Notes: generated by a model from the letters alone, not told the origin. A stretch of DNA of 64,000 nt from an uncultured Thermoleophilia bacterium (GCA_963762125.1 CAVXJO010000001.1:72610-136609); one strand, 5' to 3'; numbered from the stretch's first letter, positions 2,159 to 26,971 are shown. Numbers and translations are program-made.

Positions 2159-2350
2159 CGTCGCCCACTCTCCCTCTCTCCACGACGGCAGGGCTCGTCC
2201 CGCCGTGTGTCAGGCGCTTGCTACCCGGGCTGCGGCTGCGGCAATCGTCGCGCGGCGCAGATATGGCGGCAGGATCGGAGCGCTGGAAGTGGCGCGGACG
2301 CAGCTGGGCGCCGAGCGCATGCTCCGCCTGCGCGCTGCAGGCGGGGCCGG

Positions 2351-4741: not shown

Positions 4742-4885
4742 GCAAGGCTACCACGCGGCTGCCGCCGGCCTGCAGGCCGATCGCCCGCGCAGGCATTCAA
4801 GAACAGGCTTAGAATCGTCGAGGTAGTACGCAGACTGTCTCTGCGCTTCGTAAACCTGCTCGCGTCGCGCGTCGTGGGAGGGGCC

Positions 4886-6262: not shown

Positions 6263-6313
6263 CGCCGGCGTCGCGCCGGGCCGCTGAGGGACCGCCGGCG
6301 CGGCGGCCGCCGG

Positions 6314-8278: not shown

Positions 8279-8417
8279 GCGTCCGAGTCTAGCAAGGTTG
8301 ACGGACGGGAGCGGCTGCGGCGACGAGCGGTGGCGAGAACGAGGTGGCGTCAGTCCGCCGCCGCCGTGACGGCTGGGCCGGCGGGCCGGGCACAAGCCCC
8401 GCCGGCCCAGCTCTTGT

Positions 8418-10835
8418 CTACTTGACGGTCCTGGTCGCCCAGGCGCTCACGGCGTTCGTGGAGCCGCCGCCGAAGCGCGCGCGGACGCCGGTGACGCCCG
8501 CGGCGGAGACGGTCGTCCTGGCCTTCCCCCCGGCGAGTGTGGCCGCGCCCGCGGCCACCCAGCGGCCGTGCACGCGGCGCTGGAACCTGATCTTCCCGTC
8601 GGCGTCCTTGGGCGAGACGCGAGCCGTGAGCACGAGCCGTCGGCCGCGGTGCGTGACCGCCAGCCGGGTCGCGGCGCGGACCTTGACGGTCAGCTGGTCG
8701 GCGCCCGGCAGCGTGTCGTCGGTCAGTGCGCCGACCTCGGCCGTGATGAGGACGTTGTGTCTGAAGCCCGGCAGCACGGCGGCGAACAGCGCCAGCCCGT
8801 CGCCGCCGTTGGCGGTCACGGTGAGCGTGGGCTTCGCCGGCTCCGGCTTGCCGGCCTCCCGGCAGTAGATCGCGACCGGCACCTCGTGAGTCGCGCGTCG
8901 CACGGAGCCGGTCAGGCGGATGGGCTCGCCCAAGTCGGCCTTGGTCCTGGCTCGCGCGGTCACCGTCGCCGTCTGCTTCTCCACGCCGCCGCTGAACACC
9001 CAGTCCCCGGAGATGATGGCCTCGGCCGCCGGCTCCGGTCCGTAGGAGTCTTCTTCATCCGACGGATCCGGGATGAAGGCGACGACGACGTCCCCGTTCG
9101 CGGGCAGGCCGTCGACGAGCGCCTTCGTGTCCGCCAGCGTCAGCGGGCCGCTCGCGGACCCGTCATCCTCGGAATCGCTGGAGTATGCGCTCCAGCTCGC
9201 GGCCGGCATCACGTCCAGGTAGCCGCTGAGGACGGTCCCCGCGGGGACGTCCAGCGTGGCGTGCAGTGTCTGCGGCTCACTCGAGCCGCTGTGATAGTAG
9301 GTCACGTCGACCTCGTTCGTCCCTGTGCGGATGGCGCGCGGGATCGTCGCGTCGCTGATCCCTGCGTAGCGGCGCGTGGACGCGAAATCGGCGGTCACGT
9401 CCACCGACTTCACGCGCACGTCGCGGACGCCGTAGGGGTCGTCCAGGACCTTACCCATGATGGTGGTCACGTCGCCGGCGGCTGCGTCTGCCAGACCCTG
9501 CCCGCTGTCGTCAGCGTTGTTGTCCCAGACGTTGTCGCGGGTGATCGTGTAGTCGCTCTTCCCGTCGCTCACGACGACCGTCGTGGTCGTGGTCGCGCTG
9601 CCCGCGAGCGGGTCGCTGTCGAGGGCGTGGTAGAGCCCGGCCGCGGCGGTGTACGTGGTGACGCCCGCATAGTCACCCCAAGGGTCGGCGATCTCCGGGT
9701 AGTACACGGTCGCGAACCACTGGCCGAGGTCGGTCACGTCGGCCACCGGCGCGCCGCCGTCCACGGACCCGTGCGTGGTCACCGGGAACGTGAGCATGGC
9801 GCCGCCGAGCCGCGCGACGACTCCCGCGGAGCGGTCCTGGACGGCGACGCCCTTGGCGTCGGCCGGCGTCATCATCTTGTAGGGCGTGTACGTGGACGGC
9901 CACACGGCGTCGACGGTGGCTCCGGTGAGCCTGCCCTCCACGGGCCCGAGCCCGAGGTCGAGACCCGAGTACCCGCCGAGGATCGGGTGGCCGAAGAGCA
10001 GCGCGGAGTCGCCGTCGACGTAGGTCACCGTGCCCAGGACGCTGAGCGCGTAGTGACCGGTGGAGAAGACGACCCCACAGGGCGACCCCGCCTCCAGTGC
10101 CGGAGTCGCGCCGGCACCGGCCGTCGCCTCGCCGGGGAGCACCGTCAGGCCGCCGCCCTCAAGCCTGGTCGCCAGCTTGCGGTAGGCCGTGCTTCCGCTC
10201 GAGAGTCCAGTGATGCGCGCTACGGCGAGCGGATGCATGACCACCGTGTCGGTGCCGGCCGTGGTCCCCGCCGTCCCGAGGATGAGTCTCTTGACGGGGC
10301 CGGCGGCCGTCGCCACCGGCCGGTCGAGCTTGACGGCGGCGGCCTGCGTGCCCTGCGCCGCCGCCGCCGCATACTGATCCTGCAACGACGTCATGTACTC
10401 TATGGGCGTGGCGAGACCGGTGCCGCGCAACGTGAACCAGTCGCCGTACGACACGGCGCCGACGATACGGTCAGTGCCGTCCACGTTCGCGTACACGGGG
10501 CTTCCGCTCATGCCGGCGGCGATGCCGCCGATGTCGGTGATCGCCGGGTCGGTCGATTCGAACATGATGAGCTTGCCCCAGTAGAAACCGTCCACGATCG
10601 CGAGGATCCGGACCGGGATGTTGGAGACCGTGGTGCCCGACATGCTCGTCTTCATGAAGCCGTCGACGCTGCCGTGGGCGGTGAGCTCGGCCTGCAGACC
10701 GTCGAGGCCGAGCGTCAATGGCGGCGTCGCAGAGGCCGGCGCGGCGACTGCGAGCAGAGCTCCGACGACCGCGATGAGCACAAGGCTCCACCACCTTCCG
10801 TGCCGCGCGCGCGAACCTGCAGAGTGTGTGCCCAT
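8418..10835 (-). CDS. secreted peptidase, S55 (SpoIVB-type) serine protease-like domain with long C-terminal beta-sandwich region
   Basis: Signal peptide WWSLVLIAVVGALLAVAAPASA. The GMSGSPVY motif resembles the SpoIVB/S55 catalytic serine motif. ~800 aa with Thr/Ser/Gly-rich beta-rich repeats. The family call is from memory and needs an HMM check. Confidence 0.5.
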   Translation of the reverse strand: MGTHSAGSRARHGRWWSLVLIAVVGALLAVAAPASATPPLTLGLDGLQAELTAHGSVDGFMKTSMSGTTVSNIPVRILAIVDGFYWGKLIMFESTDPAITDIGGIAAGMSGSPVYANVDGTDRIVGAVSYGDWFTLRGTGLATPIEYMTSLQDQYAAAAAQGTQAAAVKLDRPVATAAGPVKRLILGTAGTTAGTDTVVMHPLAVARITGLSSGSTAYRKLATRLEGGGLTVLPGEATAGAGATPALEAGSPCGVVFSTGHYALSVLGTVTYVDGDSALLFGHPILGGYSGLDLGLGPVEGRLTGATVDAVWPSTYTPYKMMTPADAKGVAVQDRSAGVVARLGGAMLTFPVTTHGSVDGGAPVADVTDLGQWFATVYYPEIADPWGDYAGVTTYTAAAGLYHALDSDPLAGSATTTTTVVVSDGKSDYTITRDNVWDNNADDSGQGLADAAAGDVTTIMGKVLDDPYGVRDVRVKSVDVTADFASTRRYAGISDATIPRAIRTGTNEVDVTYYHSGSSEPQTLHATLDVPAGTVLSGYLDVMPAASWSAYSSDSEDDGSASGPLTLADTKALVDGLPANGDVVVAFIPDPSDEEDSYGPEPAAEAIISGDWVFSGGVEKQTATVTARARTKADLGEPIRLTGSVRRATHEVPVAIYCREAGKPEPAKPTLTVTANGGDGLALFAAVLPGFRHNVLITAEVGALTDDTLPGADQLTVKVRAATRLAVTHRGRRLVLTARVSPKDADGKIRFQRRVHGRWVAAGAATLAGGKARTTVSAAGVTGVRARFGGGSTNAVSAWATRTVK

Positions 10836-10934
10836 GTGCCCCCCATTCGTTGACCACCGGCCGAAACGGCCCCGTGCCGGTGAACCTGACTCTATCGTCG
10901 CGCGGCGTCCGCGTCGGGCGCAGGAGGCCCTCAA

Positions 10935-11378
10935 ATGAAGTACAGCTCAGCCCAACTCGGCCGCGCCCTCGTCATTCGCCTCGAGGACGGGGATGTCGTC
11001 CACGAGTGTATCGAGGAGGCCGCCCTGGCGGAAGGCATCGCGCGCGCCGCGGTCGTCCTGCTCGGCAGCGCCGGCGGCGGCAGCCGCATCATCGTCGGTC
11101 CAGAGGACGGGGACGCGCGGCCGGTCGTGCCCATGGAGCGTGTCCTGCATGACGTGCACGAGATGGCCGGGGCCGGGACGATCTTCCCCGACGAGGGCGG
11201 CCGGCCGGTGCTGCATCTGCACGCGGCCTTCGGCCGCGATGACAAGGTGACCGCCGGCTGCATCCGTACGGGCGTCAAGACGTGGGTCGTCGTCGAGGCC
11301 GTGGTGATCGAGCTCACCGGCAGCGAGGCGACGCGGCGCATCGACCCGGCCACCGGCTTCGAGCTGCTCGACGCCTGA
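10935..11378 (+). CDS. PPC domain (DUF296) protein, predicted DNA-binding
   Basis: 147 aa. Reading matches the DUF296/PCC fold (RLEDGDVVHECIEEAA...GSAGG...LHLHAAFG). Confidence 0.65.
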   Translation: MKYSSAQLGRALVIRLEDGDVVHECIEEAALAEGIARAAVVLLGSAGGGSRIIVGPEDGDARPVVPMERVLHDVHEMAGAGTIFPDEGGRPVLHLHAAFGRDDKVTAGCIRTGVKTWVVVEAVVIELTGSEATRRIDPATGFELLDA

Positions 11379-11661: not shown

Positions 11662-13260
11662 ATGGGCGGACCGCGGAGAACTCGCTCGCTACGGCGTGGT
11701 GTCGCGCTGCTCGCCGGCTTCGGCGTGCTCGCCGTCGCCGCAGCGGCGCTGCCGCCGTCGGTCGCCGCCGCTCCCTGGAGCAGCCGCACCTACCCCAAGA
11801 AGTACGACCTGCGCACACGGGACCGCGTCACTCGCGTCGGCCTGCAGGACCACCACAGCACCTGCTGGATCTTCGCCGCCACCGGCTCGCTCGAGTCCCG
11901 TCTTCTGCCCGGAGCCAGGCTTGACCTGTCGGAGAACCATATGGCTGACTTCCAAGGGTCGCGCCTGCGCTTCGAGGGACGCGCCCCGAGCACCATCTCG
12001 ACGGCCTACGTCGCCCGCTGGGAGGGCCCCGTGCTGGAGCGCGACGACCCGTATCCGCACCCCGGTGCGTCTCGAGAAGGGCTGCGCGCCGTGCGCCACG
12101 TGCAGGAGGTGCTGTTCCTGCCGCCCCACAGCGACCCGCGCGCCAACGCGGCGATCAAGTGGGCGGTGATGAAGTACGGCGCGGTCGACGCCACGATGGC
12201 CTACGAGCACAAGGACTTCAACGCCGCCACGGGCGCTTACTACTCGCGCGGCAGCGACCTGGACCACCACGTCTGCATCGTCGGCTGGAACGATGCCTAC
12301 CCGGCCGGGCGCTTTCTGCGCCGGCCTCCCGGCCCCGGCGCGTTCCTCATCAAGAACAGCTGGGGGACCAGCTACGGTCAGGGCGGCTACTTCTGGATCT
12401 CCTACTACGACCGGTCGCTGGGCACGACGCTCACGGTGTTCGACGGCGTCGAGGGCGTAGCCAACCACGACGCCATCTACCAGCACGACGCGCTCGGCTG
12501 GTCGAAGAGCATCGGCTACCAGAGCACGACGGCGTGGTTCGCCGCCCGGTACACGAGCGGCGGCGACGGCAGTGTGACCGCCGTGAGCCTCTACACGGCG
12601 AAGCCTGGCGCGACCTACGAGGTCCGCGTCGCGCCGGCGCTGGCCGCCGTCCCGGGGGCGCCGGTGGCCGCCAGTGGCACACTCGCCGTCGGCGGGTATC
12701 ACACCATCGACCTGACCACCTCGGTGGCGGTGACGGACGGCGCCGACTTCGTGGTCGCCGTCCGCCTGACCACGCCGGGCTCCCGTGCGCCTATCCCCGT
12801 CGAGCACCCGACCAAGCTGCTGGCGCCCCGGGCCGCAGCCGCGCGCTCCTTCATCAGCCGCGACGGCGAGACGTGGCAGGACCTCCGGACCAAGCCGGGC
12901 TTCGCCACCTCCGACGTCTGCCTCAAGGCGTTCGTCGACTCGGCCGGCGCCCGCGACTCGGCGGCCCCGCGTGTGCGGCTCGAGCCGGCGACGGCTCATC
13001 CCGGCGCCGGCACGCGCATCCGCTTCACGCTCACCGACCCGGCGTTCTCGAGCGGCAGCGCCGTGGTGAAGCTCTGGTTGCGGGACTCGAGCGGACGCGT
13101 GCTGCGCCGGCTGCGCATCCCCGCGGTGACGGTGAACGAGCGCGACACGTGGCGGTTCGCCGCGCCGGCCAGGCGCGGCGTCTACAGGATCGTCGCCCGC
13201 GCCTGGGACGTGGCCGGCCACCGCTCAGTGCTCACGCGCACCGATCTGCGGGTGCGCTAG
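11662..13260 (+). CDS. secreted papain-like cysteine peptidase (C1 family) with C-terminal Ig-like domain
   Basis: Signal peptide, then the C1 active-site context QDHHSTCWIFAATGSLESR (Gln-x5-Cys-Trp), downstream His (HHVCIVGWND) and NSWG. C-terminal ~150 aa is beta-sandwich-like. Confidence 0.75.
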   Translation: MGGPRRTRSLRRGVALLAGFGVLAVAAAALPPSVAAAPWSSRTYPKKYDLRTRDRVTRVGLQDHHSTCWIFAATGSLESRLLPGARLDLSENHMADFQGSRLRFEGRAPSTISTAYVARWEGPVLERDDPYPHPGASREGLRAVRHVQEVLFLPPHSDPRANAAIKWAVMKYGAVDATMAYEHKDFNAATGAYYSRGSDLDHHVCIVGWNDAYPAGRFLRRPPGPGAFLIKNSWGTSYGQGGYFWISYYDRSLGTTLTVFDGVEGVANHDAIYQHDALGWSKSIGYQSTTAWFAARYTSGGDGSVTAVSLYTAKPGATYEVRVAPALAAVPGAPVAASGTLAVGGYHTIDLTTSVAVTDGADFVVAVRLTTPGSRAPIPVEHPTKLLAPRAAAARSFISRDGETWQDLRTKPGFATSDVCLKAFVDSAGARDSAAPRVRLEPATAHPGAGTRIRFTLTDPAFSSGSAVVKLWLRDSSGRVLRRLRIPAVTVNERDTWRFAAPARRGVYRIVARAWDVAGHRSVLTRTDLRVR

Positions 13261-13425
13261 CGAAGCCGCCCGTCATGCCTCCGCCGGCGCACGCGGCTGG
13301 CCGACGCGAACGCCATCTGGCTCTACGATCACGCGCCGCTCGGGACCCCGGTCGGGAACGTGCGCCGAACCCGGGCCCTCGTGGCTTGAGTGATGCGCCG
13401 CGCCGGACGCGGGGCGGCACGTGAA

Positions 13426-13457
13426 GAGGGCGGGGAGTGCACGCACTCCCCGCCCTC
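13426..13457. terminator. GC-rich perfect hairpin (14-bp stem, 4-nt loop) between convergent C1 peptidase and cooS
   Basis: gagggcggggagtg-cacg-cactccccgccctc. No U-tract on either strand, so intrinsic-terminator function is uncertain. Confidence 0.25.
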
Positions 13458-13507
13458 AGGCGCTCCGGGCCTGGGCTCGCTGGCCGGCGTGCCCTGCCCG
13501 GGGCGCC

Positions 13508-13536
13508 GGGTCAGACGTCGGTCTGACCCGTTTCTG
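13508..13536 (+). terminator. candidate intrinsic terminator hairpin (9-bp stem) followed by gtttctg
   Basis: gggtcagac-gtcg-gtctgaccc then GTTTCT. Lies in the convergent intergenic region, 20 nt from the cooS stop. Confidence 0.3.
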
Positions 13537-13550
13537 CGCTCGCGCGCGAC

Positions 13551-15416
13551 TCAGATGCCGAGCGCCTCGCGCTTGCCCTCTATCCACGCCAGCATCGCGG
13601 CGACGGCTTCCTTTGCGTCGGTCTCTACCGCTAGTTTGCCGCCGGTGACGCCTGGCAGGTCCTGCGTCACGAGCTTGACAAGGTTCGGCGCGCCGGTGAC
13701 GAAGGGCACCGGGTTCACGTGCGTGTACAGGCCGAAGGCCAGCGCGGCCATGGCGTCGATGGTGGCCTTCTGCTCCATGTACTCGGGGGCGGTGGCGACC
13801 ACCGGCAGATCGCAGGTGTCGACGCCGAGGGCGTCGGCGATGGCGCCGACCAGCAGCAGGATGCGGCCGGTGTCTGTGCAGGTGCCGAAGCTGAGCACCG
13901 GCGGGATGCCGAGCAGCTCGCAGACCGCGGTGAGGCCGGGGCCGGCGTACTTCTTGGCCTCCGCCGTCTCGAGTCCGGCGACCTGGAGGCCGGCGTTGCC
14001 GCAGCCCATGGCCAGCACCAGCACGTCGTTCTTGATGAGCTCTTTGGCGATGGCGACGGTGTGGCTGTCCTGGTCGGAGTCGCGCAATGTGGTGCAACTC
14101 ACGAGGCCACAGACGCCCTTGAGCGTGCCGTTCTTGATCACGTCGAGCAGCGGGTCGAGGCTGCCGCCGAGAGCGCCGAGGATGCTCTCGGTGCTGAAGC
14201 CGGCCACGGCGTCGCCGGTGCGCAGGTCGGGCGTGACCTGACCCAGCGCCTGACGCAGGGGGAAGTTGGCGATGGCGAGGTCGATGAGCTGCTTCGCCTG
14301 GTCACCGGCGGTCGCGGCGTCGAAGACGATCGGCGTCTCGGCGCCGTCGACGCCGACGAGGTCGCTCACCGGGACGAGGAGGGTGCCGTGCGCGGCGCAG
14401 GTGGCGCCCAGAGTCGGCACGACGCAGTTCATGTCGGCGGCGAAGACGTCGAGGCCGCCCGTGGCCACCGCGAGCTCCTCGGTCAGCCAGTTGCCGGTGA
14501 GCCCGACGAAGACGTCGTCGACCTCGAAGCGCTGCACCAGCTCCTGGCCGGTCTCGATGGAGCCGACGATGCGCAGTCCTTTGGCGCCGGCGGCCTTCGC
14601 CTTCTGCTGAGCGGCGGGCTCGTGAGCGGCGTCGATCAGCGCCGCGCCGATCATCGGCTCGTGGCCGTTCACGGCGATGTTGACGTACTCGGGGTCGATG
14701 ATGCCGAGGTCCACCTTGATCGCGTGCGGCGCCGGCGTGCCCCAGAGCGCGTCCTGGGCGAGCTCGAGCGGGATCTGCGCGCCGTAGGCGGTGGCGATGC
14801 CGAGGCGCAGGCCCTTGAGGGCGAGGCTCACGTAGCTGCCGTCGACGTTGGTCAGGCAACTGGAAGTGGCGAACATGTTCTCGTGGAGGACGCCACCCGG
14901 CATGATGCCGAGCTCCTTCCACTTCGCGACGCGCTTGGCAGGGGCCATCTTCTCGACGAACGGCGAGGGGCTCTGGTGGTCGCGGTTGAACTCCGCGAGG
15001 ATCGCGTCGGCGACGCGCTTGGGCAGCGTGTCGCGCGGCTCTGCGGCCTCGCCGACGACGCCGGCGAGCAGTTCGAGTTTGCTCCAATCCTTGATCTCGT
15101 AGGTGCCGCCGGGCTTCGCCTGCGCGAGGGTCTTCATCACCTCGACGGCGTGGTAGGTGTAGGTGGCGGTGCCCATCGTGTTCTGCAGCAGGAAGTTGCG
15201 CATCGCCATGCCGTCGGCGTCGATGCCGCAGACGCCGCGCGGTGACTTCTCGGTGAGGCGGCAGGGACCCTGCGAGCACAACGAGCAGCGGATGCCCTGC
15301 TCGCAGAACCTGCAGCGCGTGCCCATGTCGTCCATGCGGTCGAACGAGGTGCTCTCGCCGGCCTCCCTGGACTCCTCGAGCATGGTGTGTACGGACGCGT
15401 GATAGCTGTCTGCCAT
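13551..15416 (-). CDS. cooS: anaerobic carbon-monoxide dehydrogenase catalytic subunit (Ni-CODH, CooS)
   Basis: N-terminal Cys pattern CRFCEQGIRCSLCSQGPCRL...RGVCGIDAD matches the CooS B/D-cluster region. Length (621 aa) fits CooS rather than Hcp. AGGAGGG RBS 5 nt before the chosen ATG. The upstream in-frame extension overlaps the ferredoxin gene and was rejected. Confidence 0.8.
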   Translation of the reverse strand: MADSYHASVHTMLEESREAGESTSFDRMDDMGTRCRFCEQGIRCSLCSQGPCRLTEKSPRGVCGIDADGMAMRNFLLQNTMGTATYTYHAVEVMKTLAQAKPGGTYEIKDWSKLELLAGVVGEAAEPRDTLPKRVADAILAEFNRDHQSPSPFVEKMAPAKRVAKWKELGIMPGGVLHENMFATSSCLTNVDGSYVSLALKGLRLGIATAYGAQIPLELAQDALWGTPAPHAIKVDLGIIDPEYVNIAVNGHEPMIGAALIDAAHEPAAQQKAKAAGAKGLRIVGSIETGQELVQRFEVDDVFVGLTGNWLTEELAVATGGLDVFAADMNCVVPTLGATCAAHGTLLVPVSDLVGVDGAETPIVFDAATAGDQAKQLIDLAIANFPLRQALGQVTPDLRTGDAVAGFSTESILGALGGSLDPLLDVIKNGTLKGVCGLVSCTTLRDSDQDSHTVAIAKELIKNDVLVLAMGCGNAGLQVAGLETAEAKKYAGPGLTAVCELLGIPPVLSFGTCTDTGRILLLVGAIADALGVDTCDLPVVATAPEYMEQKATIDAMAALAFGLYTHVNPVPFVTGAPNLVKLVTQDLPGVTGGKLAVETDAKEAVAAMLAWIEGKREALGI

Positions 15417-15526
15417 GGATCCCTCCTGGGGATGGATGTCAGGCGCCGGAGGCGCCGTGATGACTGTGGCTGTGAGGAAGGCGCGCCCGCCAGCGGCCGC
15501 GCGCCCGGTGTGCTCGCGAGCCGGCG

Positions 15527-15910
15527 TCAGCCGTGGATGAGCGCCGGCAGGCACTTGACGCAGACCCAGGTGCTCTCGCCCTTGGTGCGGGCGGGGAACA
15601 GGATGGCGTCGTTCTCGCTGCGGCCGCAGTTCATGCACTTCTGCTCGATGGTGACGTGAGCGGCAAGCTTCTCCGCCACCTTCTCGGCGGCGGCATCTTC
15701 GTCGAACGCTGGGGCGTCACGCTTCTCCACGGTGAGGGCTCCTTCGGGGCAGACGGCGAGGCAGAAGCCGGCGCCGTCGCACAGCTCCTCTTTGACGACC
15801 TTGGCCTTGCCGTCGATGATCTCGATCGCGCCTTCGGCGCACGGGGTGACGCAGACGCCACACCCGGTACAGAGGTCTTCGTCGATCTTCACGATGCTGC
15901 GGACTGCCAT
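15527..15910 (-). CDS. 4Fe-4S dicluster ferredoxin (CooF-like electron carrier)
   Basis: Two CxxCxxCxxxCP motifs (CTGCGVCVTPC, CDGAGFCLAVCP) plus a C-terminal CxxC...CxxC tail. Immediately upstream of cooS on the same strand. Confidence 0.8.
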   Translation of the reverse strand: MAVRSIVKIDEDLCTGCGVCVTPCAEGAIEIIDGKAKVVKEELCDGAGFCLAVCPEGALTVEKRDAPAFDEDAAAEKVAEKLAAHVTIEQKCMNCGRSENDAILFPARTKGESTWVCVKCLPALIHG

Positions 15911-16023
15911 GCACTGCTCGCTTTCGCGTGGTTTTCACGATAGTGACAGTGTCAAAGGTAGCGCGGACAAGCCTTCGGTACCATTGACCTGCGTCAAGGG
16001 CACGGTGGCGAGCTCGACTGGTG

Positions 16024-16251
16024 CTAGCCGGGAGGGGCCTTGACCCGCCGCGCCGTCTCCTCCACGCGATGCGCCCTGGTCTCTGGCCGTTTGGCCTCGA
16101 GGATCCAGTCGATGTACTCGCGACGATGCGACGGCGGCAGCGCCGCGAAGGCCGCCGCCGCCTCGGGGTCGTCGTGCAGTTCGATCTGCAGGTCGTGGGG
16201 GACGGGGATCTCAGCACGCGGCGTTGCGTGGTCCTGATCTTCTTCGCTCAC
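16024..16251 (-). CDS. YdeI/OmpD-associated family protein (DUF1801-like)
   Basis: 75 aa. The C-terminal motif PPSHRREYIDWILEAKRPETRAHRVEE is typical of this family. Confidence 0.55.
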   Translation of the reverse strand: MSEEDQDHATPRAEIPVPHDLQIELHDDPEAAAAFAALPPSHRREYIDWILEAKRPETRAHRVEETARRVKAPPG

Positions 16252-16266
16252 ACGACCTCCTGATGG

Positions 16267-16752
16267 TCATGCGGCTTTCGCGTCGCTGGTCTCCCCTCCG
16301 ATCCGCTCACGGATGTCGTGCACGGTCGCGTTGGCGCGCTGCGCCGTCTGGTCGGCGACCCGCATCATGCTCCGCCGGCTGCGCGGCCAGGCGAGCGCGA
16401 TGCCGATGCCGATCGAGCTGATGAGCAGCCCTGTGCCGATCACGGCCATGCGCAGGAAGCTGCGCGGCCGGACGTCGGCGCGCACGCGGCCGGCGCCGCT
16501 CTGGGCCGACGTGAGCATGCGCTGGACGTCACGCCGGAGGCGCTGGTCGGAGCGGATGTGGCTCATGAGGTTGTTGGCCGAGCGGATGAAGTCGCCGGCG
16601 TCGTCGCGCAACTCGTCATCCGTCGCCAGCCGCCGGACGTAAGGGGCCGTGGTCGCCGCCACGCCGGTCACTCGCCCGATGGTCCGCAATCTGCTGATGC
16701 TTGCCATGGTGACCCACCGTCCTCCCATGAGGTCGGATTTCCGCTGATACAT
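16267..16752 (-). CDS. hypothetical membrane-anchored protein
   Basis: ORF with one predicted TM helix (AVIGTGLLISSIGIGIALAW). No recognisable domain. Start uncertain (M1, M9 or M17). Confidence 0.35.
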   Translation of the reverse strand: MYQRKSDLMGGRWVTMASISRLRTIGRVTGVAATTAPYVRRLATDDELRDDAGDFIRSANNLMSHIRSDQRLRRDVQRMLTSAQSGAGRVRADVRPRSFLRMAVIGTGLLISSIGIGIALAWPRSRRSMMRVADQTAQRANATVHDIRERIGGETSDAKAA

Positions 16753-16792
16753 GGGATGTTCCCGATCCGCCGGGACGGGTCACGGTGGGGCG

Positions 16793-18094
16793 TCAACGTC
16801 TGCCGGCGGCGTGGAACAGCTCCGGCAGGCTGACGGACGTGTATCCGCGGGCGCGCAGGCCGTGCAGGATCGCCGGCAGCGCCGCCATGGTCGTCGTGCG
16901 CACGTGCAGGCCGATGATCGCGCCCGAGTGCACGTGAGAGAGTGTGTTGGCGGCGATGGTGCTCGCGCCGTAACCGCGCCAGTCGCCCGGGTCCACATCC
17001 CACATGATCACGTGCTTGAAGCCGGCGGAGCCCGCCGCGGCCACGGTGGTCTGGTTGCGGTCGCCGTAGGGCGGCCTCATCCAGCCGACCGGCGTGGCCT
17101 TGGCGGCGCGCCACCACGGCGCCTCGCTTGAGATGAGCTCCCGGCGCACGCCGTCGTAGCCCTGGGTCGTCATCGGCGCGTGCGTCCAGCCGTGCGAGCC
17201 GATGCCGTGTCCCTCTCGCACCGCGCGTCGCGCCACGCGGGGCGCGGCGGAGACGTAGGGGCCCAGGATGAAGAACGTGGCGTGCATGCGGTACTTCTTC
17301 AATGTGTCGAGCATGCGCGCCCACACCCAAGCGGGGCCGCCGTCGTCGAACGTGAGCGCGACGCGTTTCCCGGCGCCCTTGACGTTGTGGGTGACCGAGG
17401 CGCGCACGGGGTGGTAGTCGCGAACGACGAGAGGCCGGGTGACTGTGCGGTTGCCGGCCTGGTCGGTGAACGTGAGCGTGATGCGGAAGAGCCCGGGGAC
17501 GAAGGCCTTGCCGTTGCCGTAGCGATCAGGGACGGTGATGGTCCGGGAGCCCTCGCCGACGCTGAGGCCGCGCCCGCGACGGGCCGGGTACCCGTACTGG
17601 TCGACTACCGTGTAGGAGAGCCGGGCGCCGCCCGAGATGTCGGTGAGGGTGAAGCGGATGCCGACCGGTTGTACGCGGCGCAGCACCTCCGCGCGCAGCC
17701 TCAGCTTGGCGATCACCGGCGGCCGCGTGTCGATCTTGACCGCCACCGTCTGCGCCGTCTCCATGCGGCCCTCGGCGTCCACCGACCAGAAGGTGAGGAC
17801 GTGCTCGCCGTCGTTGGCGTGGGTGCTCGGCGCCTCGATGACCACCTCGGTGGTCGCCGCCGGGGCGCCGCCGTCGATCTGCACGAAGGTGTCGGCCACC
17901 GCCGCGACGGAGCTCTCGGCGGTGAACCTGACGGAGACGGCGTCGTTGTGCCAGCGTGCGTCCACACCGTGCGCGACGGTCACGGGCGGCGGCCCCTCCA
18001 GCGCAACCGGGGAGGGTGACGGCGGACGGACGTCGGAGTCTCCGGGCCCGGCCGCCGCCGCCGCGGCTGCGGTCGCCAACACCACCAGCAGCAC
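16793..18094 (-). CDS. secreted polysaccharide deacetylase (NodB domain) with N-terminal Ig-like domains; paralog of 4886..6262
   Basis: Same architecture and motifs as the paralog (WHNDAVSVRFTAES..., ALTFDDG, HGWTH, RPPYG, WDVDPGDW). Alignable along the full length with the first copy. Confidence 0.75.
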   Translation of the reverse strand: MLLVVLATAAAAAAAGPGDSDVRPPSPSPVALEGPPPVTVAHGVDARWHNDAVSVRFTAESSVAAVADTFVQIDGGAPAATTEVVIEAPSTHANDGEHVLTFWSVDAEGRMETAQTVAVKIDTRPPVIAKLRLRAEVLRRVQPVGIRFTLTDISGGARLSYTVVDQYGYPARRGRGLSVGEGSRTITVPDRYGNGKAFVPGLFRITLTFTDQAGNRTVTRPLVVRDYHPVRASVTHNVKGAGKRVALTFDDGGPAWVWARMLDTLKKYRMHATFFILGPYVSAAPRVARRAVREGHGIGSHGWTHAPMTTQGYDGVRRELISSEAPWWRAAKATPVGWMRPPYGDRNQTTVAAAGSAGFKHVIMWDVDPGDWRGYGASTIAANTLSHVHSGAIIGLHVRTTTMAALPAILHGLRARGYTSVSLPELFHAAGRR

Positions 18095-18214
18095 ACAGAC
18101 GAGAACCAGCGCGCGCGCTACGATCTCTCCCTCCCGTTCTCGGATCAGGCCGGCGCGATCACGCAGCAGCGCTCCACCGGCACGCCTCCTGTAGGGTACT
18201 CCAGTGGGCCCAGC

Positions 18215-18928
18215 CTACTCCTGTGCCAGTCGGTGCAGCTGCTCGAAGCTCAGGATCTCGATGAGCCGGTGGTCGCCACTCATGCGGATGACCCCGGCCC
18301 GCTTGAGACGGTCGAAGGTGCGGCTGAGTGTCTCCGGCACGGTGCCGAGGCGCGCGGCGAGCTCTCGCTTGCTCACCGGGAGGTGGATGACCCGCGGCAC
18401 GTCCGGGACCTCGCCGGCGCCCTCAGCCGGCTCGAGCTGCTCGTCGGCGCGCGCCAGCAGGTACCTGGCGAGGCGCGCCGTCACCGGCAGCAGCAGCTCC
18501 TCCACGCGACGGTTAAGCAGTCCGAGCAGGTGTGCCATCGCCGCCAGCAAGTTGATGGCGAGCTGTGGCTCGGCCAGCAAGAGCGCAAGCGTCTGCTCCT
18601 TGTCGAAGCGATAGAGCAGACACTCGGTCATCGTCTCGGTGCTTGACGGATAGACCTCCTGGAACAGGGCGGCCTCCGCGAAGGTCTGTCCCGGATCCAC
18701 GTGCCGGACGGTGGCCGTGCGCCCGTCGCGCAGCAACTTGAAGACCTTGAGCCGCCCCTCGGAGAGGAGGTAGAAGGCGTCGGCGGCGTCTCCCTGCAGG
18801 AACAGGGTCTCGTCCGCGCCGAGGCGCCGCGGCTGGGCGAGGCCCGCGAGCCGCTCGAGCTGGTCCTCATCCAAGGCCCTGAACAGGGCGCCGGCGCGCA
18901 GGTCGGTCAGGATGCGGTCGCCACTCAT
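18215..18928 (-). CDS. Crp/Fnr family transcriptional regulator
   Basis: cNMP-binding beta-barrel (GETLFLQGDAADAFYLLSEGRLKV...GQTFAEAALF) and C-terminal HTH (VSKRELAARLGTVPETLSRTFDRL). Confidence 0.85.
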   Translation of the reverse strand: MSGDRILTDLRAGALFRALDEDQLERLAGLAQPRRLGADETLFLQGDAADAFYLLSEGRLKVFKLLRDGRTATVRHVDPGQTFAEAALFQEVYPSSTETMTECLLYRFDKEQTLALLLAEPQLAINLLAAMAHLLGLLNRRVEELLLPVTARLARYLLARADEQLEPAEGAGEVPDVPRVIHLPVSKRELAARLGTVPETLSRTFDRLKRAGVIRMSGDHRLIEILSFEQLHRLAQE

Positions 18929-18948
18929 GTCGCGAGTATAGCCGCCGT

Positions 18949-19836
18949 TCAGCTCTGTGAGGCAGTGCCCGCGGCGAGCGTCGTGGAGGCCGGCACGACG
19001 ACGATCGCGGCACGTCCTTCTAGCGGGCATTTGTACTCACAGATGCCGCAGCCGATGCAGCGGTCCGCGGCCACCCGCGGGCGCACGACCACGGCCGTGC
19101 TGCCGTCCGCGCGCGTGACCTCACGCTCGGGCCCGAGGACGACGGCCTTCTCAGGTACCGGGCACATCTCCTCGCAGACGATGCAGGGGGTGTCGGCTGC
19201 CCAGGGCAGACAGCGGTCCCTGTCGATGACCGCGACGCCGAGCACCTGAAGCGTCTCGTCCGCCCACTGCACGATGCCGACTGTCGGAGCCCAAGTCATC
19301 CCCGTCCGCTCCATTGTGTCCGCGAGGTAGACGAATCCGGGGACGACCGACGTCGTCATCGTCCGGGTGAGGAGCGACAGCGGGTCGAGGACGAGGAACG
19401 TCAGGTTGGACAGCGCGGCCAGCACGATGATCGCACCCAGGAGGACGTACTTGACGCTGCGGAGGCCCGTGGGCATGCGCCCGGCGAGCCGTCGCGCCGG
19501 GCGGAGACGCAGCCAGCCCAGCAGCGTTCCCAAAGGACAGATCCAGCCACACCAGATGCGACCGAGCACAAGGGTCAGTCCCAAGGTGATGAGGGCGAGC
19601 GCGAAGGGCGCCAGCCAGGCGCGGGCGGCGAGCATCGTCGCCAGTCCGGCGAGAGGGTCCAAGCGGAAGAAGACGTTGGCGGATGGGACCGGTTCGAGCC
19701 GCTGCAGTCCGGCGAAGAGCAGCGAGACGAAGACGACGAAGGCCGCCACCTGGACGGCGCGCCGCGCCCAACGGGCGGCTCTCCAGCGGCCCGTCCCGCG
19801 GCGGACCGGACCGGCCTTGCCCCTCTGTAGCGGCAT
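18949..19836 (-). CDS. NapH/MauN-like integral-membrane polyferredoxin (4Fe-4S binding protein)
   Basis: TM helices with the hallmark GRIWCGWICPLGTLLGW motif. Two C-terminal ferredoxin motifs (CIVCEEMCP, CIGCGICEYKCP). Start uncertain (19836 or 19869). Confidence 0.7.
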   Translation of the reverse strand: MPLQRGKAGPVRRGTGRWRAARWARRAVQVAAFVVFVSLLFAGLQRLEPVPSANVFFRLDPLAGLATMLAARAWLAPFALALITLGLTLVLGRIWCGWICPLGTLLGWLRLRPARRLAGRMPTGLRSVKYVLLGAIIVLAALSNLTFLVLDPLSLLTRTMTTSVVPGFVYLADTMERTGMTWAPTVGIVQWADETLQVLGVAVIDRDRCLPWAADTPCIVCEEMCPVPEKAVVLGPEREVTRADGSTAVVVRPRVAADRCIGCGICEYKCPLEGRAAIVVVPASTTLAAGTASQS

Positions 19837-19999
19837 CACACACCTCGTCACCGGAGGCGGTGACGCCATGGTACTCGATGGGCGCCTGACGCGAGGCGGA
19901 CGGCGCCCCCTTCTTCATCACGCGCCGTGCTCGCATCCCGAGCGACGCCGGTATGGCGTGCGGCGGCTTGACCGAGCCACGGCGCGTCGTCTAGCATCC

Positions 20000-20165
20000 G
20001 CGGCACTTGGAGGTGCCCGCGAGGGCCACCAGAGGGAAGCCGGTGCAAGTCCGGCGCGGACCCGCCGCTGTGACCGGGGACGAAGGCTGCGAGAAGCCAC
20101 TGCCAGCTCGCTGGCGGGAAGGTGCGGCCCGAGGACGATCCGGGAGCCAGAAGACCTGCCTCCAG
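20000..20165 (+). ncRNA. cobalamin (AdoCbl) riboswitch
   Basis: AGAGGGAAGCCGGTGCAAGTCCGGCGCGGACCCGCCGCTGTGACCGGGGACGAAGGC then GCCACTG (B12 box) and GGGAAGG...AGCCAGAAGACCTGCC. These match the Rfam RF00174 conserved core and B12 box. Confidence 0.8.
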
Positions 20166-20236
20166 AGAGTGTGCCGACGCGTCCCGCGTGGTGAACGGGA
20201 TGGCGGCGGCGCATGCTGTGGCCTCGAACACGGGGG

Positions 20237-20275
20237 GCCCGGGCCAGACGAAGTGTCGGCCCGGGCTTTGTCGTC
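20237..20275 (+). terminator. intrinsic terminator / riboswitch expression platform
   Basis: Stem gcccgggcc / ggcccgggc with a 12-nt loop, followed by TTTGTCGTCTTCGT. Lies between the aptamer and the permease start. Confidence 0.5.
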
Positions 20276-20295
20276 TTCGTGACCGGGAGGCAGGC

Positions 20296-21135
20296 GTGCG
20301 AGCAGGAGCGACAGCGGGCGGCCGAGGGCGCCGCTTCTCCGCAGGCCGGCTGCGCGCGCCGAACGGCACCTCGTCTCGCTCGTCGGCAGTTCCGACGGTG
20401 CTCGGCCTGCTGCTGGCGCTCACGGTCGGCGCCGAGCTGGTCGTGCGCGCCCTGCACGTCGCCCCCTACGTCTTCCCGCCGCCGTCAGCCGTGCTGGTGG
20501 AGCTGGCGGCGGAGCCCACGCTCTTCGTCCGCGCTGCACTGGTCACGATCTCCGAGGCCGTCGCCGGCTTCTTGGTGGGGGCGGCGGCCGCGTTCGCGTT
20601 CGCTGCCGCGGCGACGTACTCGCGCCGCCTCGACGAACTGCTCACCCCGCTGGTGGTCGCATCGCAGACGGTGCCGGTCATCGCCTTGGCTCCTCTGCTC
20701 GTGCTCTGGATGGGCTACGGCTCGCCGCCCAAGATCGTCGTCTGCGCACTGATCGCCTTCTTCCCCATGGCGGTCACGGCTCGCGAGGGACTCCGCGCTA
20801 CAGACCCGCAACTGCTGCTGCTCATGCGGTCCGTGGGCGCGAGCCGCCGGGTCATCTTCTGGCGTGTGCGCGTGCCCTTCGCGCTGCCGTATCTCGCCGC
20901 CGGCGCGAGGACCGGCATCACGCTCAGCCTCGTCGGCGCCGTCGTCGCCGAGTGGACCGGGGCCGACAGCGGTCTCGGCTACCTGGTGCTCTCCGCGAAC
21001 GCTCGCCTGGCGACCGCGCAGGCGTTCGCCGCCATCGTCGTCATCACCGCCATCGGTCTGCTCGCCTACGCCGCCGCCGTGCTGCTCGAGCGTCGGCTCT
21101 GCTGGTGGACCCCCGCTCAGAAAGGATCCTCGTGA
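20296..21135 (+). CDS. ABC transporter permease, NitT/TauT (nitrate/sulfonate/HMP) family
   Basis: Six TM segments and the EAA-like loop of the BPD_transp_1 family. GTG start preceded by a GGGAGG RBS. Upstream in-frame ORF sequence overlaps the riboswitch. Confidence 0.8.
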   Translation: MRAGATAGGRGRRFSAGRLRAPNGTSSRSSAVPTVLGLLLALTVGAELVVRALHVAPYVFPPPSAVLVELAAEPTLFVRAALVTISEAVAGFLVGAAAAFAFAAAATYSRRLDELLTPLVVASQTVPVIALAPLLVLWMGYGSPPKIVVCALIAFFPMAVTAREGLRATDPQLLLLMRSVGASRRVIFWRVRVPFALPYLAAGARTGITLSLVGAVVAEWTGADSGLGYLVLSANARLATAQAFAAIVVITAIGLLAYAAAVLLERRLCWWTPAQKGSS

Positions 21136-21140
21136 ACCCC

Positions 21141-22211
21141 ATGGCCCGACCCGGAGCGCGCGCGCTCCCATCCTCGCCTGCCGCCCGAAAGGCGCGACCG
21201 GCTCTCCTCGCGGCGCTGCTGGTGCTCGTCGCCGCCGCGGCGCTCTCCGGCTGCGGCGGCCGCGCCGATGCGGCGACGAGCGACCCCTCCGGCGCCGCGG
21301 CGCCCGACGTCTCCGAGGTGACGCTGATCATGGACTGGGTGCCCTGGGTCCTCGACATACCTCTCGACGTAGCCCAAGACAAGGGGTTCTACGCGGACCA
21401 CGGCCTGACGGTGAAGCAGACGCTGCCGGCCGGCGCGACGGACGTGGCCAAGTTCGTCTCCACCGGCAAGGCGCAGTTCGGCCTGTACTACGCGCCCGAC
21501 ACGCTGATGGGCGTGGCCGCGGGCGCTCCGCTGCTCTCGGTGGCCAGCCTCATGAGCCACGCGCCCGTCGGGATGGCGATGGCGCCGGGGGTGCACGCCC
21601 GGACCCCGGCGGACCTGGCGGGTACGACGGCCGGAGTGGTGATGATCCCCTCGACGCGCGCCTCGTTCGCGACCATGCTTGACGCCGGCGGCGTCGACCC
21701 TGCTGCCGTCAAGGTCGCCGATCCGGGCTTCGACCTGGTCGCGCCACTGCTCGCCGGCAGGTACGACTCGGTCGCGGTGACCGAGTTCGGCGAACTCGTC
21801 CAGGCCGATGCGACCGGCCAGCAGCTCGACTATCTCGACTTTCGCGACTGGGGCACGCCGGACTACGCGTTCCTCAACGTGCTGACCCAGAAGGGATTCG
21901 CCGCCGAACATCCGGCGACGGTCAAGGCTTTCGTGGCCGCCACGATGCAGGGTCTCGATTGGGCCGTGGCGCATCCCGACGAGGCGGTCGCCATCTACGT
22001 GGCCCGCCATCCCGAGCTCGAGCCCGGGCTGCTGCTGGCGCAGTGGCAGGCCGCGATCCCGTCGATGGCGACGGGGACGGGACACATATCTGGCTCCCAG
22101 GACGTCGCTGCGTGGGAGCGGCTGAACGAGTGGATGGTGACGACGGGTCAGCTCGAGAAGAGCGCCGACGTGACCGGCACGGTGAGCGACGACTACCTGC
22201 CGGCAGAATGA
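21141..22211 (+). CDS. ABC transporter substrate-binding lipoprotein, NMT1/THI5-like (ThiY/SsuA-type)
   Basis: Lipobox LSGC. Reading (LIMDWVPWVLDIPLDVAQDKGFYADHGL...) fits NMT1/THI5-type binding proteins. Stop overlaps the ATPase start (ATGA). Confidence 0.8.
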   Translation: MARPGARALPSSPAARKARPALLAALLVLVAAAALSGCGGRADAATSDPSGAAAPDVSEVTLIMDWVPWVLDIPLDVAQDKGFYADHGLTVKQTLPAGATDVAKFVSTGKAQFGLYYAPDTLMGVAAGAPLLSVASLMSHAPVGMAMAPGVHARTPADLAGTTAGVVMIPSTRASFATMLDAGGVDPAAVKVADPGFDLVAPLLAGRYDSVAVTEFGELVQADATGQQLDYLDFRDWGTPDYAFLNVLTQKGFAAEHPATVKAFVAATMQGLDWAVAHPDEAVAIYVARHPELEPGLLLAQWQAAIPSMATGTGHISGSQDVAAWERLNEWMVTTGQLEKSADVTGTVSDDYLPAE

Positions 22212-23080
22212 CCGCCGCGGCGCTCACGGTGACGGCGGTCTCGGCCGGCTACGGCAGCGGCGAAGACGCCTCAGGCGGAGTGCTGGCCGGCGTCGACTTC
22301 GAGGTGCTCGCCGGTGAGTGTCTCGCCGTCGTCGGCCGCAGCGGCTGCGGCAAGAGCACGCTCCTCAATGTCCTTGCCGGCGTGCATGCACCGGCGGCCG
22401 GGGGCGTCCGCGTGGGCGGCGAGGTCGTCGCGGGGGGCGACTTGCGGGGCACGGGCTCGCCCGGCTGCACGTCGGGTCACGCCGCGTATCTGTTCCAGCA
22501 GGACCTTCTGCTGCCGTGGAAGGGAGCTCTCGCGAACGCCGTGTTCGCGGCGCGCGTGGCGGCTGGACGCGCCGCCCGCCGCGATCGACGCGGGCTCGAG
22601 CGGCGCGCCGAAGCGTTGCTCCGCGAGTTCGGTCTTGGTGACAGCCTGGAGCTACTGCCGCGCGAATTGTCCGGAGGCATGCGTCAGCGCGTGGCCCTGG
22701 CCCGGACCGTGCTCATGGACCGTGGGGTGATCCTTCTCGACGAGCCGTTCGGAAGTCTCGACGCGGTCACCCGCGCTGAGATGCGTCTCTGGCTGCTGGA
22801 CGTGATGGCGGCGCACCCCGCGACCTGGGTGCTGGTCACCCATGACGTGGACGAGGCGGTGCTGCTCGGCGACCAGGTCGCCGTCTTGCGCGGCCGGCCG
22901 GCGCGGCTCGAGGGCCGGTCACCGGCCACGCTGAGCCGCGCCCGGCGCCGGCGGATCGCGGCCGTCGCCGCGGGGGAGCCGGCGGATGCCGCGGGGCACT
23001 CGCGCTCCGACCTGGAGGCTGCCGCTGCGGCCGCCGCCGGTCTGCGCCGCGCCTTGCTTGACGAGCGGCGGGCCTCGTGA
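22208..23080 (+). CDS. ABC transporter ATP-binding protein (NitT/TauT family)
   Basis: Walker A GRSGCGKST, signature LSGGMRQR, Walker B ILLDEPFGSLD, H-loop VTHD. Confidence 0.85.
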   Translation: MTAAALTVTAVSAGYGSGEDASGGVLAGVDFEVLAGECLAVVGRSGCGKSTLLNVLAGVHAPAAGGVRVGGEVVAGGDLRGTGSPGCTSGHAAYLFQQDLLLPWKGALANAVFAARVAAGRAARRDRRGLERRAEALLREFGLGDSLELLPRELSGGMRQRVALARTVLMDRGVILLDEPFGSLDAVTRAEMRLWLLDVMAAHPATWVLVTHDVDEAVLLGDQVAVLRGRPARLEGRSPATLSRARRRRIAAVAAGEPADAAGHSRSDLEAAAAAAAGLRRALLDERRAS

Positions 23081-23114
23081 GTGCGCCTGGGGAGAGAGGC
23101 CGCGCTCGATTGAC

Positions 23115-23295
23115 CCTCGGCTGCGGCGGCTGTAGCCTTGCCGGGCATCTCTCAGCTGCTGGGAAGCCGGTGCAAGGCCGGCGCTGCCCCGCAACTGTAG
23201 GCGCCGACGAACGTCGCACGGAAGCCACTGCCCCGCGGGGTGGGAAGGCGCGGCAAGTAGGACGACGCGCAAGCCAGGAGACCGTGGCCGGGAGA
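23115..23295 (+). ncRNA. cobalamin riboswitch (second copy) preceding cobU
   Basis: CTGGGAAGCCGGTGCAAGGCCGGCGCTGCCCCGCAACTGTAGG then GAAGCCACTG and GGGAAGGCG...AAGCCAGGAGACC. The downstream GAGGGAGGG RBS is likely sequestered by the expression platform. Confidence 0.75.
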
Positions 23296-23328
23296 TCACT
23301 GCGACAACGCCTCGAGGGAGGGCCTGCG

Positions 23329-25157: not shown

Positions 25158-25206
25158 GGTCGGCGGCGACTCGAGAACGCAAGCTGGCTCAGGACTTCAC
25201 GAGACG

Positions 25207-26948: not shown

Positions 26949-26971
26949 CCGGCGTTCCGCCCGCCCCCCTC

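Follow-up and report, generated by a model that had tools for sequence, protein, structure and literature searches.

A Ferredoxin and CooS-V-Type Gene Pair behind a Crp-Type Box in an Uncultured Thermoleophilia Bacterium: A Proposed Ferredoxin-Fed Stress Reductase

Does the cooS-like gene found in a 64,000-nt stretch of DNA from an uncultured Thermoleophilia bacterium (hereafter the window; GC ~71%; all coordinates are positions in it) encode a carbon monoxide dehydrogenase (CODH), and, if not, what might it do together with its neighbors? The original prediction, made from the sequence of this DNA, had read seven co-directional minus-strand genes at 13551-19869 as a compact Ni-CODH module, in which CO-derived electrons could be relayed by a ferredoxin and a membrane polyferredoxin and a Crp-family regulator might even sense CO. 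The gene calls stood: seven minus-strand open reading frames (ORFs) span the interval, all with a coding-type GC content at third codon positions (GC3 = 0.83-0.93), and their domain assignments were confirmed by Pfam and NCBIfam. The catalytic assignment did not. As judged from its sequence, the enzyme is of the CooS-V (clade D-1) type and is not a Ni,Fe-CODH. We consider it rather probable that the locus is a regulator-controlled, two-gene operon for a ferredoxin and this CooS-V-type enzyme, and we propose that the pair may function as a ferredoxin-fed stress reductase.

An Enzyme of the CooS-V Type

The 621-residue product scored 721 bits against the equivalog model TIGR01702 (cut-off 478) and matched Prismane (PF03063) with an E-value of 9e-136, and its homologues are publicly named 'carbon-monoxide dehydrogenase catalytic subunit'. 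These results would favor a genuine CODH. However, when we searched all PDB sequences, the best match by far was 7b7q (683 bits), and the true CODHs scored lower: 385 bits for the Thermococcus enzyme (6t7j), 349 for CODH-IV (6elq), 340 for the Desulfovibrio enzyme, and ~313 for CODH-II. The entry 7B7Q is CooS-V of Carboxydothermus hydrogenoformans, a protein that has a CODH scaffold but carries no Ni, its active site being a redox-morphing Fe/S/O hybrid cluster, [4Fe-3S-nO] (Jeoung et al. 2022, PMC9311411). CooS-V neither oxidizes CO nor reduces CO2, and hydroxylamine is a slow substrate (PMC9311411).

The active-site residues told the same story. Five of the six C-cluster ligands of CODH-II (His261, Cys295, Cys333, Cys446, Cys476, and Cys526) are present in the window enzyme, and Cys295 is missing. 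The characteristic Cys clusters invoked by the original prediction are therefore there for the most part, but the decisive ligand is replaced by Glu288, in a motif that reads SIETGQE as opposed to the canonical CCTGNE. Residues H252, E288, C331, C441, C472, C513, and E548 correspond to His259, Glu295, Cys338, Cys449, Cys480, Cys521, and Glu556 of CooS-V, and C38 corresponds to Cys41, a ligand of the [2Fe-2S] D-cluster, whose motif in the window enzyme is of the CxxC type. All eight residues were invariant across 12 homologues, with identities down to 62%. Both changes named as synapomorphies of the CooS-V subclade, Cys295 to Glu and Gly41 to Cys (PMC9311411), are thus present. In CODH-II, the C295E and C295A variants lost both Ni and CO oxidation (PMC9311411).

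The closeness to CooS-V is a matter of alignment scores and ligand set, rather than of a tree with clade references, and on these grounds the enzyme groups with the non-CO-oxidizing clade D-1, not with the CO oxidizers, an outcome that the original prediction had itself named as refuting its reading. It is predicted to hold an Fe/S/O hybrid cluster instead of a Ni,Fe C-cluster, and CO oxidation by it is almost certainly impossible. For structural group D-1 of clade D, properties like those of HCP were predicted by Inoue et al. (2019), and in a genomic-context study of 2026 clade D is taken to have no CO/CO2 activity. According to the CooS-V authors, sequences of this kind are routinely mis-annotated as CODH (PMC9311411).

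The gene neighborhood agreed with this assignment. A six-frame motif scan of the window revealed no deviant Walker A motif of the CooC type (GKGGxGK[ST]) in any frame; NiFe-hydrogenase motifs and a second Prismane gene were likewise absent from the 64 kb, and a MinD/CooC-like protein from one of the related loci described below (L055) had no tblastn match there. Candidate CooC, HypB, hydrogenase, or ACS signatures in the window were all discarded, as the searches returned just ABC ATPases, CobU, and CobQ. Neither in the window nor within 10 kb on either side in the related loci did we find cooC, acs, or hydrogenase genes. The original prediction had correctly reported that such genes were missing from the window (our motif scans, tblastn, and Pfam searches concur), but it regarded the lack of cooC as atypical, whereas it is what one expects of an enzyme type that contains no Ni and does not oxidize CO. 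Since the enzyme is not a Ni-CODH, a flow of CO-derived electrons through the ferredoxin and a polyferredoxin, as well as CO sensing by the Crp-family protein, lose their support.

The Conserved Unit and Its Operator

A protein identical to the window enzyme is on record on a 398-kb NCBI/ENA contig. A single scan of species-representative genomes yielded 80 loci with a cooS homologue (cited below, where needed, by L numbers), with which we compared all seven window proteins by tblastn. About 27 of the 80 belong to metagenome-assembled genomes (MAGs) of uncultured Thermoleophilia/Actinomycetota from soils, bogs, lakes, and digesters, at 75-97% identity; the others, less similar at 54-62%, are spread over archaea, including Methanoperedens, and over Armatimonadota, Dehalococcoidia, Planctomycetota, WOR-3, and further groups.

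In every recovered Thermoleophilia locus, and in the distant L041, a ferredoxin gene lies immediately upstream of cooS-V; the Thermoleophilia ferredoxins are 71-98% identical to the window copy over their full length. In 18 loci, a co-directional crp gene precedes this pair, and in seven of them no other gene intervenes (L018, L021, L023, L024, L041, L082, and L083, where L082 and L083 are contigs of 1.3-1.4 Mb). L041, despite a CooS identity of 59% and a Crp identity of 43%, keeps crp, box, ferredoxin, and cooS-V contiguous. The whole arrangement sits between cobUTS and PCC/RecQ/RlmL, in a neighborhood that is itself conserved.

The genes that separate crp from the ferredoxin gene in the window, encoding a NodB-type deacetylase, a YdeI fragment, and a protein with one transmembrane (TM) segment, vary by locus. 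They are absent from the contiguous loci, POR and ThrE genes take their place in L084, and the one-TM protein occurs, among the related loci, in L002 only. We therefore rejected them as members of the module: they are unrelated, lineage-variable insertions into crp → fdx-cooS-V, which confirms that their interleaving, remarked upon in the original prediction, is indeed odd. The proposed grouping of cooS, ferredoxin, and Crp also proved sound.

Upstream of the ferredoxin gene is a perfect palindrome, TTGACGCAGGTCAA, centered 80.5 nt before the ATG; it is the sole perfect TTGAC-N4-GTCAA match in the window. The more relaxed TTGAY-N4-RTCAA precedes the ferredoxin gene in all 27 related loci for which upstream sequence was available. 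Overall, 514 kb of related loci contain 29 copies, each upstream of a ferredoxin gene (L016, where the box is paired in tandem, and L017, where a copy is duplicated, account for the two in excess of 27), as compared with ~0.2 chance matches estimated from base composition. The conserved unit across the ~27 Thermoleophilia loci is, in sum, a Crp box, then the ferredoxin gene, then cooS-V. The window box is identical to the published HcpR motif, TTGACnnnnGTCAA.

In the window, a putative -10 hexamer, TACCTT, lies 23 nt downstream of the box. A TANNNT sequence occurs 22-24 nt after 27 of the 29 boxes (exactly 23 nt after 23 of them), so that the spacer is nearly fixed in length, and its sequence is not conserved. 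If TACCTT is the -10 element, the center of the box would fall near -41.5, the geometry of class II activation.

The ferredoxin and cooS genes are 110 nt apart. Our scan of 13200-20300 for terminators and sigma-70 consensus sequences predicted no terminator, either between these two genes or elsewhere, and no minus-strand promoter; this is uninformative as regards an activator-dependent promoter in high-GC DNA. As the start of cooS we took the ATG at 15416 and not that of the ORF at 15638, because an AGGAGG Shine-Dalgarno sequence precedes the former and because the TIGR01702 alignment begins at residue 78 of the long ORF. The features of the locus are collected in Table 1.

Table 1. Features of the locus at 13551-19869 of the window
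Feature	Position	Strand	Evidence
cooS-V-type gene (621 aa)	13551-15416	minus	Pfam Prismane and TIGR01702
Ferredoxin gene (127 aa, 2x Fe-S)	15527-15910	minus	several Fer4 Pfam families
Putative -10 hexamer TACCTT	15955-15960	minus	direct reading of the sequence
Crp/Fnr-type operator, perfect palindrome TTGACGCAGGTCAA	15984-15997	.	
OmdA/YdeI fragment	16024-16251	minus	domain match
Hypothetical one-TM protein	16267-16752	minus	
Secreted NodB-type deacetylase with Ig-like N-terminal part	16793-18094	minus	domain match
Crp/Fnr-family regulator (237 aa)	18215-18928	minus	cNMP_binding PF00027 and HTH_Crp_2 PF13545
Truncated NapH-NapG-like membrane Fe-S protein (306 aa)	18949-19869	minus	Fer4_5; CGWICPLG

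The 5' untranslated region that separates the ferredoxin ATG from the putative -10 hexamer (15911-15952, minus) shows high conservation in the closest relatives, CACTGTCAC..GTGAAAACCACGCGAAAGCGAGCAGTG; in more distant loci the sequences differ, and a short CAC(T)...(A)GTG stem is seen. We considered the hairpin of this region (CACTG...CAGTG) as a regulatory RNA and dropped the idea, since its folding energy of -14.8 kcal/mol was not significant relative to shuffled sequences (z = -1.9).

A few loci showed peculiarities of their own. In the fetched loci, second Prismane or hcp genes were limited to a second CODH in L039 and a partial duplicate in L017. The former, in Methanoperedens sp. BLZ2 (4452-6308, minus), is a CODH-family gene, 42% identical, that lies upstream of the CooS-V-type gene in divergent orientation; it is an instance of clade D occurring together with other CODHs, as has been published. 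L017, a Thermoleophilia MAG, contains a 3.1-kb direct duplication (47-3149 and 8045-11145, 98.6% identical) that comprises the box, the ferredoxin gene, and cooS-V up to codon 384 and is either real or an assembly artifact. L003 and L007 are two separate fdx-cooS-V loci of one MAG, and in L064 cooS-V is split by a frameshift.

Outside the module, Pfam identified RecQ, RlmL, peptidases, a PCC-domain protein, an ABC transporter, and cobalamin genes among the products of 20 flanking ORFs. An Rfam scan of 13000-20500 gave nothing within the gene module, its sole match being a cobalamin riboswitch (RF00174, 19995-20177, plus strand, 102.6 bits, E = 1.7e-25) that belongs to the divergent operon and lies between the napH-like gene and a divergent ABC transporter (permease, NMT1-type binding protein, and ATPase, ~20122-23080), which is followed by cobU, cobT, cobS, cobD, and cobQ (23077-30619). 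The permease gene must in truth start downstream of 20122, because the mechanically called start at that position overlaps the riboswitch. A second NodB-type deacetylase gene (5069-6253, plus strand) is located ~10 kb away from the first, the two products sharing 50% identity over 396 residues; two such genes are present in related loci, too.

Regulator, Ferredoxin, and a Proposed Reductase Role

The start of the Crp/Fnr-family regulator at 18928 is backed by the alignment of its orthologues. Its recognition helix, RLGTVPETLSR, is invariant in 19 of these and displays an E-x2-SR signature, which in FNR-class proteins goes with TTGA-type half-sites. The probable role of the protein is that of an activator acting at the box. 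It contains a single Cys, which is not conserved among the 19 orthologues, and it has no N-terminal Cys cluster; hence, we discarded the possibility of an FNR-type [4Fe-4S] oxygen sensor. The nearest relatives of solved structure (70-82 bits) are a structural-genomics protein from Ruegeria (3h3z/3fx3) and DNR (3dkw). Several close homologues bear the JGI label "dissimilatory nitrate respiration regulator"; the homologues retrieved by our word-index search were all at least 76% identical.

The motif wyTTGACnnnnGTCAArw was described for HcpR in Geobacter, Desulfuromonas, and cyanobacteria, where the core targets of the regulator are hcp and the gene for a ferredoxin-like protein, frdX (Rodionov et al. 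2005, PMC1274295). The hcp gene is, moreover, under a dual type of control, through Crp/Fnr-type (HcpR) or Rrf2-type (NsrR) regulators (PMC1274295).

The N-terminal domain of the window ferredoxin contains two Fe-S motifs, CxxCxxCxxxC and CDGxGxCxxxCP. The second, CDGAGFCLAVCP (residues 44-55; window 15725-15783, minus), has three Cys rather than four, which suggests a [3Fe-4S] cluster or a non-Cys ligand; it is kept in the short ferredoxins of Thermoleophilia as well as in the long forms of other phyla (L048-L076). The LdpA Fe-S-binding domain (PF25160) gave a weak match (29.3 bits) over this motif. The C-terminal part of the ferredoxin contains a CxxC-x22-CxxC knuckle of a zinc-ribbon or rubredoxin-like kind.

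Ferredoxins of ~245-320 residues adjoin cooS-V in Armatimonadota, Dehalococcoidia, a Kuenenia MAG, WOR-3, Thermoplasmata, and unclassified bacteria. They share the N-terminal domain of the window protein, CDGxGxC included, at 43-61% identity, and carry an additional conserved C-terminal domain (PF27217, "AF_0155", in precomputed annotation). In five loci, a gene for an Rrf2 regulator directly precedes the long ferredoxin-cooS-V pair. The long family (2x Fe-S plus PF27217) has at least 8000 database members at E ≤ 1e-20, and when its genes occur away from cooS-V they sit behind Rrf2 or FUR/PerR regulators (as in the metagenome and MAG contigs L085, L088, L091, and L094), in clusters with ferritin, rubrerythrin, desulfoferrodoxin, a flavodiiron protein, methionine sulfoxide reductases (Msr), nitroreductase, and also a 434-residue Prismane protein of HCP size. 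The long-form ferredoxin looks like a widespread electron carrier of stress regulons, apparently uncharacterized so far, and the context of the family in other phyla points to a defense against oxidative or nitrosative stress.

The membrane protein encoded upstream of crp appears to matter less. Its orthologues, present in this position in eight related loci, are 550-576 residues long and resemble NapH-NapG fusions. The 306-residue window protein aligns to orthologue residues 8-203 and 451-553, so ~245 residues have been lost in frame; the junction is near codon 205 (~19255), and the lost part includes the second CX3CP and several cluster motifs. NapH proteins are recognized by four TM helices, a pair of CX3CP motifs, a pair of [4Fe-4S] motifs at the C-terminus, and a family score that exceeds the cut-off; the window protein has one CX3CP and scored 41.9 bits with TIGR02163 (cut-off 213) and 40.6 with NF007013 (cut-off 234). 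The closest relative (L002), all contiguous crp-fdx-cooS-V loci, and many others lack the gene. The protein is probably at most accessory and dispensable, may be decaying in the window, and is unlikely to be an obligatory electron relay, which weakens the case for the membrane arm of the electron route envisaged in the original prediction.

Taking these observations together, and by analogy with the systems cited, the most likely function of the locus is that of a regulator-induced, ferredoxin-fed, HCP-like reductase linked to nitrosative or oxidative stress. A signal, most plausibly nitric oxide (NO) or nitrosative/redox stress (as for HcpR and DNR), would activate the Crp protein, which would bind the box at about -41.5 and recruit RNA polymerase to a promoter with no recognizable -35 element. 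The fdx and cooS-V genes would be co-transcribed, as suggested by their spacing, the lack of a predicted terminator between them, and the strong Shine-Dalgarno sequence of cooS. The ferredoxin may then feed low-potential electrons into the D-cluster ([2Fe-2S]), from which they would pass by way of the B-cluster to the hybrid cluster; there, a small compound that contains N-O or O, such as hydroxylamine, NO, or a peroxide, would be reduced. In the relatives that possess it, the intact NapH-NapG-like protein may connect this pathway with the quinone pool or take part in sensing the signal.

Some points speak against this proposal. CooS-V has cluster potentials ~300 mV lower than those of HCP, which its authors took as a hint of a different role (PMC9311411), so it may catalyze another reaction in the cell than Hcp does; the structural paper leaves the physiological role of CooS-V undefined (PMC9311411). 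The Crp sensor domain shows no conserved Cys and no invariant His among the 19 orthologues that could serve as ligands. The regulator is only a candidate member of the HcpR branch, on the basis of motif and architecture, and the putative transcription start site was placed from the -10-like hexamer alone. Finally, about eight loci have no crp within 10 kb, so that the gene for the protein acting at the box could lie elsewhere.

An alternative that keeps the same operon would have the Crp protein act as a switch for anaerobiosis or the general redox state, with CooS-V and its ferredoxin devoted to oxidative stress (peroxide or O2) or to some other very-low-potential reduction. The TTGAC-N4-GTCAA box is also FNR-box-like (PMC1274295), the related ferredoxins cluster mainly with ferritin, rubrerythrin, desulfoferrodoxin, Msr, and PerR/FUR, and the low potentials of CooS-V agree with another function (PMC9311411); furthermore, Crp is paired with the NapH-NapG-like protein in nine loci and could report the redox state of the quinone pool. 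Yet the regulator lacks the N-terminal cysteine cluster of FNR, hydroxylamine is the only substrate shown for CooS-V (PMC9311411), and the identical motif is specifically that of HcpR for hcp-frdX (PMC1274295). On balance, we regard this alternative as unlikely, albeit deserving of serious attention.

One may also suppose that the neighboring Crp has nothing to do with fdx-cooS-V, that a global Crp/Fnr protein encoded elsewhere binds the box, and that the adjacency merely reflects the synteny of a single lineage. Besides the box-bearing loci devoid of a nearby crp, this would fit the situation in the window, where crp is 2.2 kb from the box with three unrelated genes between, and the sampling of the loci, which come from one class plus L041, making phylogenetic inertia possible. 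However, the intervening genes turn over (NodB, YdeI, POR, ThrE, or none) and crp and fdx-cooS-V stay linked, the distant L041 retains the contiguous arrangement, and a box exclusive to the fdx promoter in 514 kb is unlike a global regulon. We find this explanation improbable.

That CooS-V might catalyze nothing and serve instead in regulation or redox sensing, its morphing cluster reporting the redox state of the cell, we judge to be quite improbable. Regulatory or redox-sensing roles were proposed for clades C and D from co-occurrence in the 2026 genomic-context study, and the cluster does rearrange with the redox state while its known turnover is slow (PMC9311411). Nevertheless, a dedicated ferredoxin and a putative activator-dependent promoter are typical of an enzyme, whereas a sensor would be expected to be constitutive; in addition, no DNA-binding or signaling domain is fused to the protein or conserved next to it, except for the upstream Crp or Rrf2.

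As for a genuine CO-oxidizing Ni,Fe-CODH, with the ferredoxin (perhaps the polyferredoxin) carrying electrons and cooC elsewhere in the genome, the equivalog score, the public names, and the five retained ligands are so heavily outweighed by Glu288, by the match to 7b7q, by the gene context of the window and its relatives, and by the known habit of mis-annotation that we deem it extremely improbable.

Returning to the reductase proposal, the Crp- and Rrf2-headed contexts of cooS-V and its ferredoxins mirror the dual HcpR/NsrR control of hcp. This analogy leads us to advance, tentatively and with less confidence than the operon itself, that a hybrid-cluster enzyme built on the CODH scaffold may replace Hcp in an HcpR-type regulon, at least in the Thermoleophilia lineage and L041, and that other phyla may have a version governed by Rrf2 (perhaps NsrR-like) regulators. 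If this were true, the orphan clade D CODHs would act in nitrosative/oxidative stress as inducible reductases that depend on ferredoxin, and we would have a first physiological handle on the CooS-V/clade D family. Moreover, some of these enzymes may belong to hosts that lack any true CODH, which would depart from the published distribution, where CooS-V types are reported solely alongside other CODHs (PMC9311411).

There are practical implications as well. CooS-V-like genes pass the NCBI equivalog model and receive the name "anaerobic CO dehydrogenase", which inflates the inference of CO metabolism in soil and wetland Actinomycetota. On the experimental side, the 14-bp box, the co-encoded ferredoxin, and thereby a natural redox partner make the signal, the electron donor, and the substrates approachable.

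Relation to Known Systems

The resemblance to the classical CODH systems is confined to general features. With the CooA/RcoM-cooFSCTJ systems (e.g., Rhodospirillum rubrum) and with CODH-I/II, the window enzyme shares the fold and the B-cluster cysteines, and in the CooA/RcoM systems, too, a ferredoxin-type partner gene adjoins cooS and a Crp-family regulator is near. Unlike them, the window enzyme lacks the Cys295 ligand, and the window contains no CooC/CooT/CooJ, ECH hydrogenase, or ACS; the operator is TTGAC-N4-GTCAA, and the partner is not a four-cluster protein of the CooF type.

The membrane Fe-S protein recalls NapH/NapG and NosR/NirI in its N-terminal membrane part with CX3CP (CGWICPLG) and in its two C-terminal 4Fe-4S motifs. 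However, the window copy scores far below the NapH and NapG cut-offs and has lost the internal segment described above, and Pfam analysis of the flanking ORFs revealed no nap, nos, or nir genes near it.

The closest parallel for the enzyme is CooS-V of C. hydrogenoformans, to which it aligns over the full length and with which it has in common the hybrid-cluster ligands, the extra Cys41 equivalent, and a context devoid of cooC and C1-metabolism genes. The hosts differ, ours being a high-GC Thermoleophilia (Actinomycetota) lineage represented by MAGs only. The window gene joins a known family, CooS-V/clade D-1, and what is added here is the operon logic across its relatives, which we have not found described in the searchable literature. 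There, according to the 2026 genomic-context study, clade D genes are mostly solitary, with "no clear pattern" of context; in contrast, the window gene is closely tied to a ferredoxin of its own and to a promoter with a Crp box, and its sub-lineage shows a sharp pattern, namely, an obligatory ferredoxin partner, a single-target Crp operator equal to the HcpR motif, and Rrf2 equivalents in other phyla.

Those Rrf2-ferredoxin(AF_0155)-cooS-V operons are similar to the window locus in having a homologous N-terminal ferredoxin domain with CDGxGxCxxxCP, encoded next to cooS-V, and a gene for a one-component regulator upstream. They differ in that the regulator is of the Rrf2 rather than the Crp/Fnr type and in that their ferredoxins carry a PF27217 domain of ~130 residues at the C-terminus, where the window protein has the short Cys knuckle.

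As a regulatory arrangement, the locus is reminiscent of HcpR-hcp-frdX (PMC1274295), which likewise combines a Crp/Fnr regulator, the palindrome TTGACnnnnGTCAA, a ferredoxin-like gene, and a hybrid-cluster enzyme of the Prismane superfamily. The components are nonetheless distinct, since the window enzyme is built on the dimeric CODH scaffold and is not Hcp, and its partner is a ferredoxin of 127 residues ending in a CxxC...CxxC knuckle.

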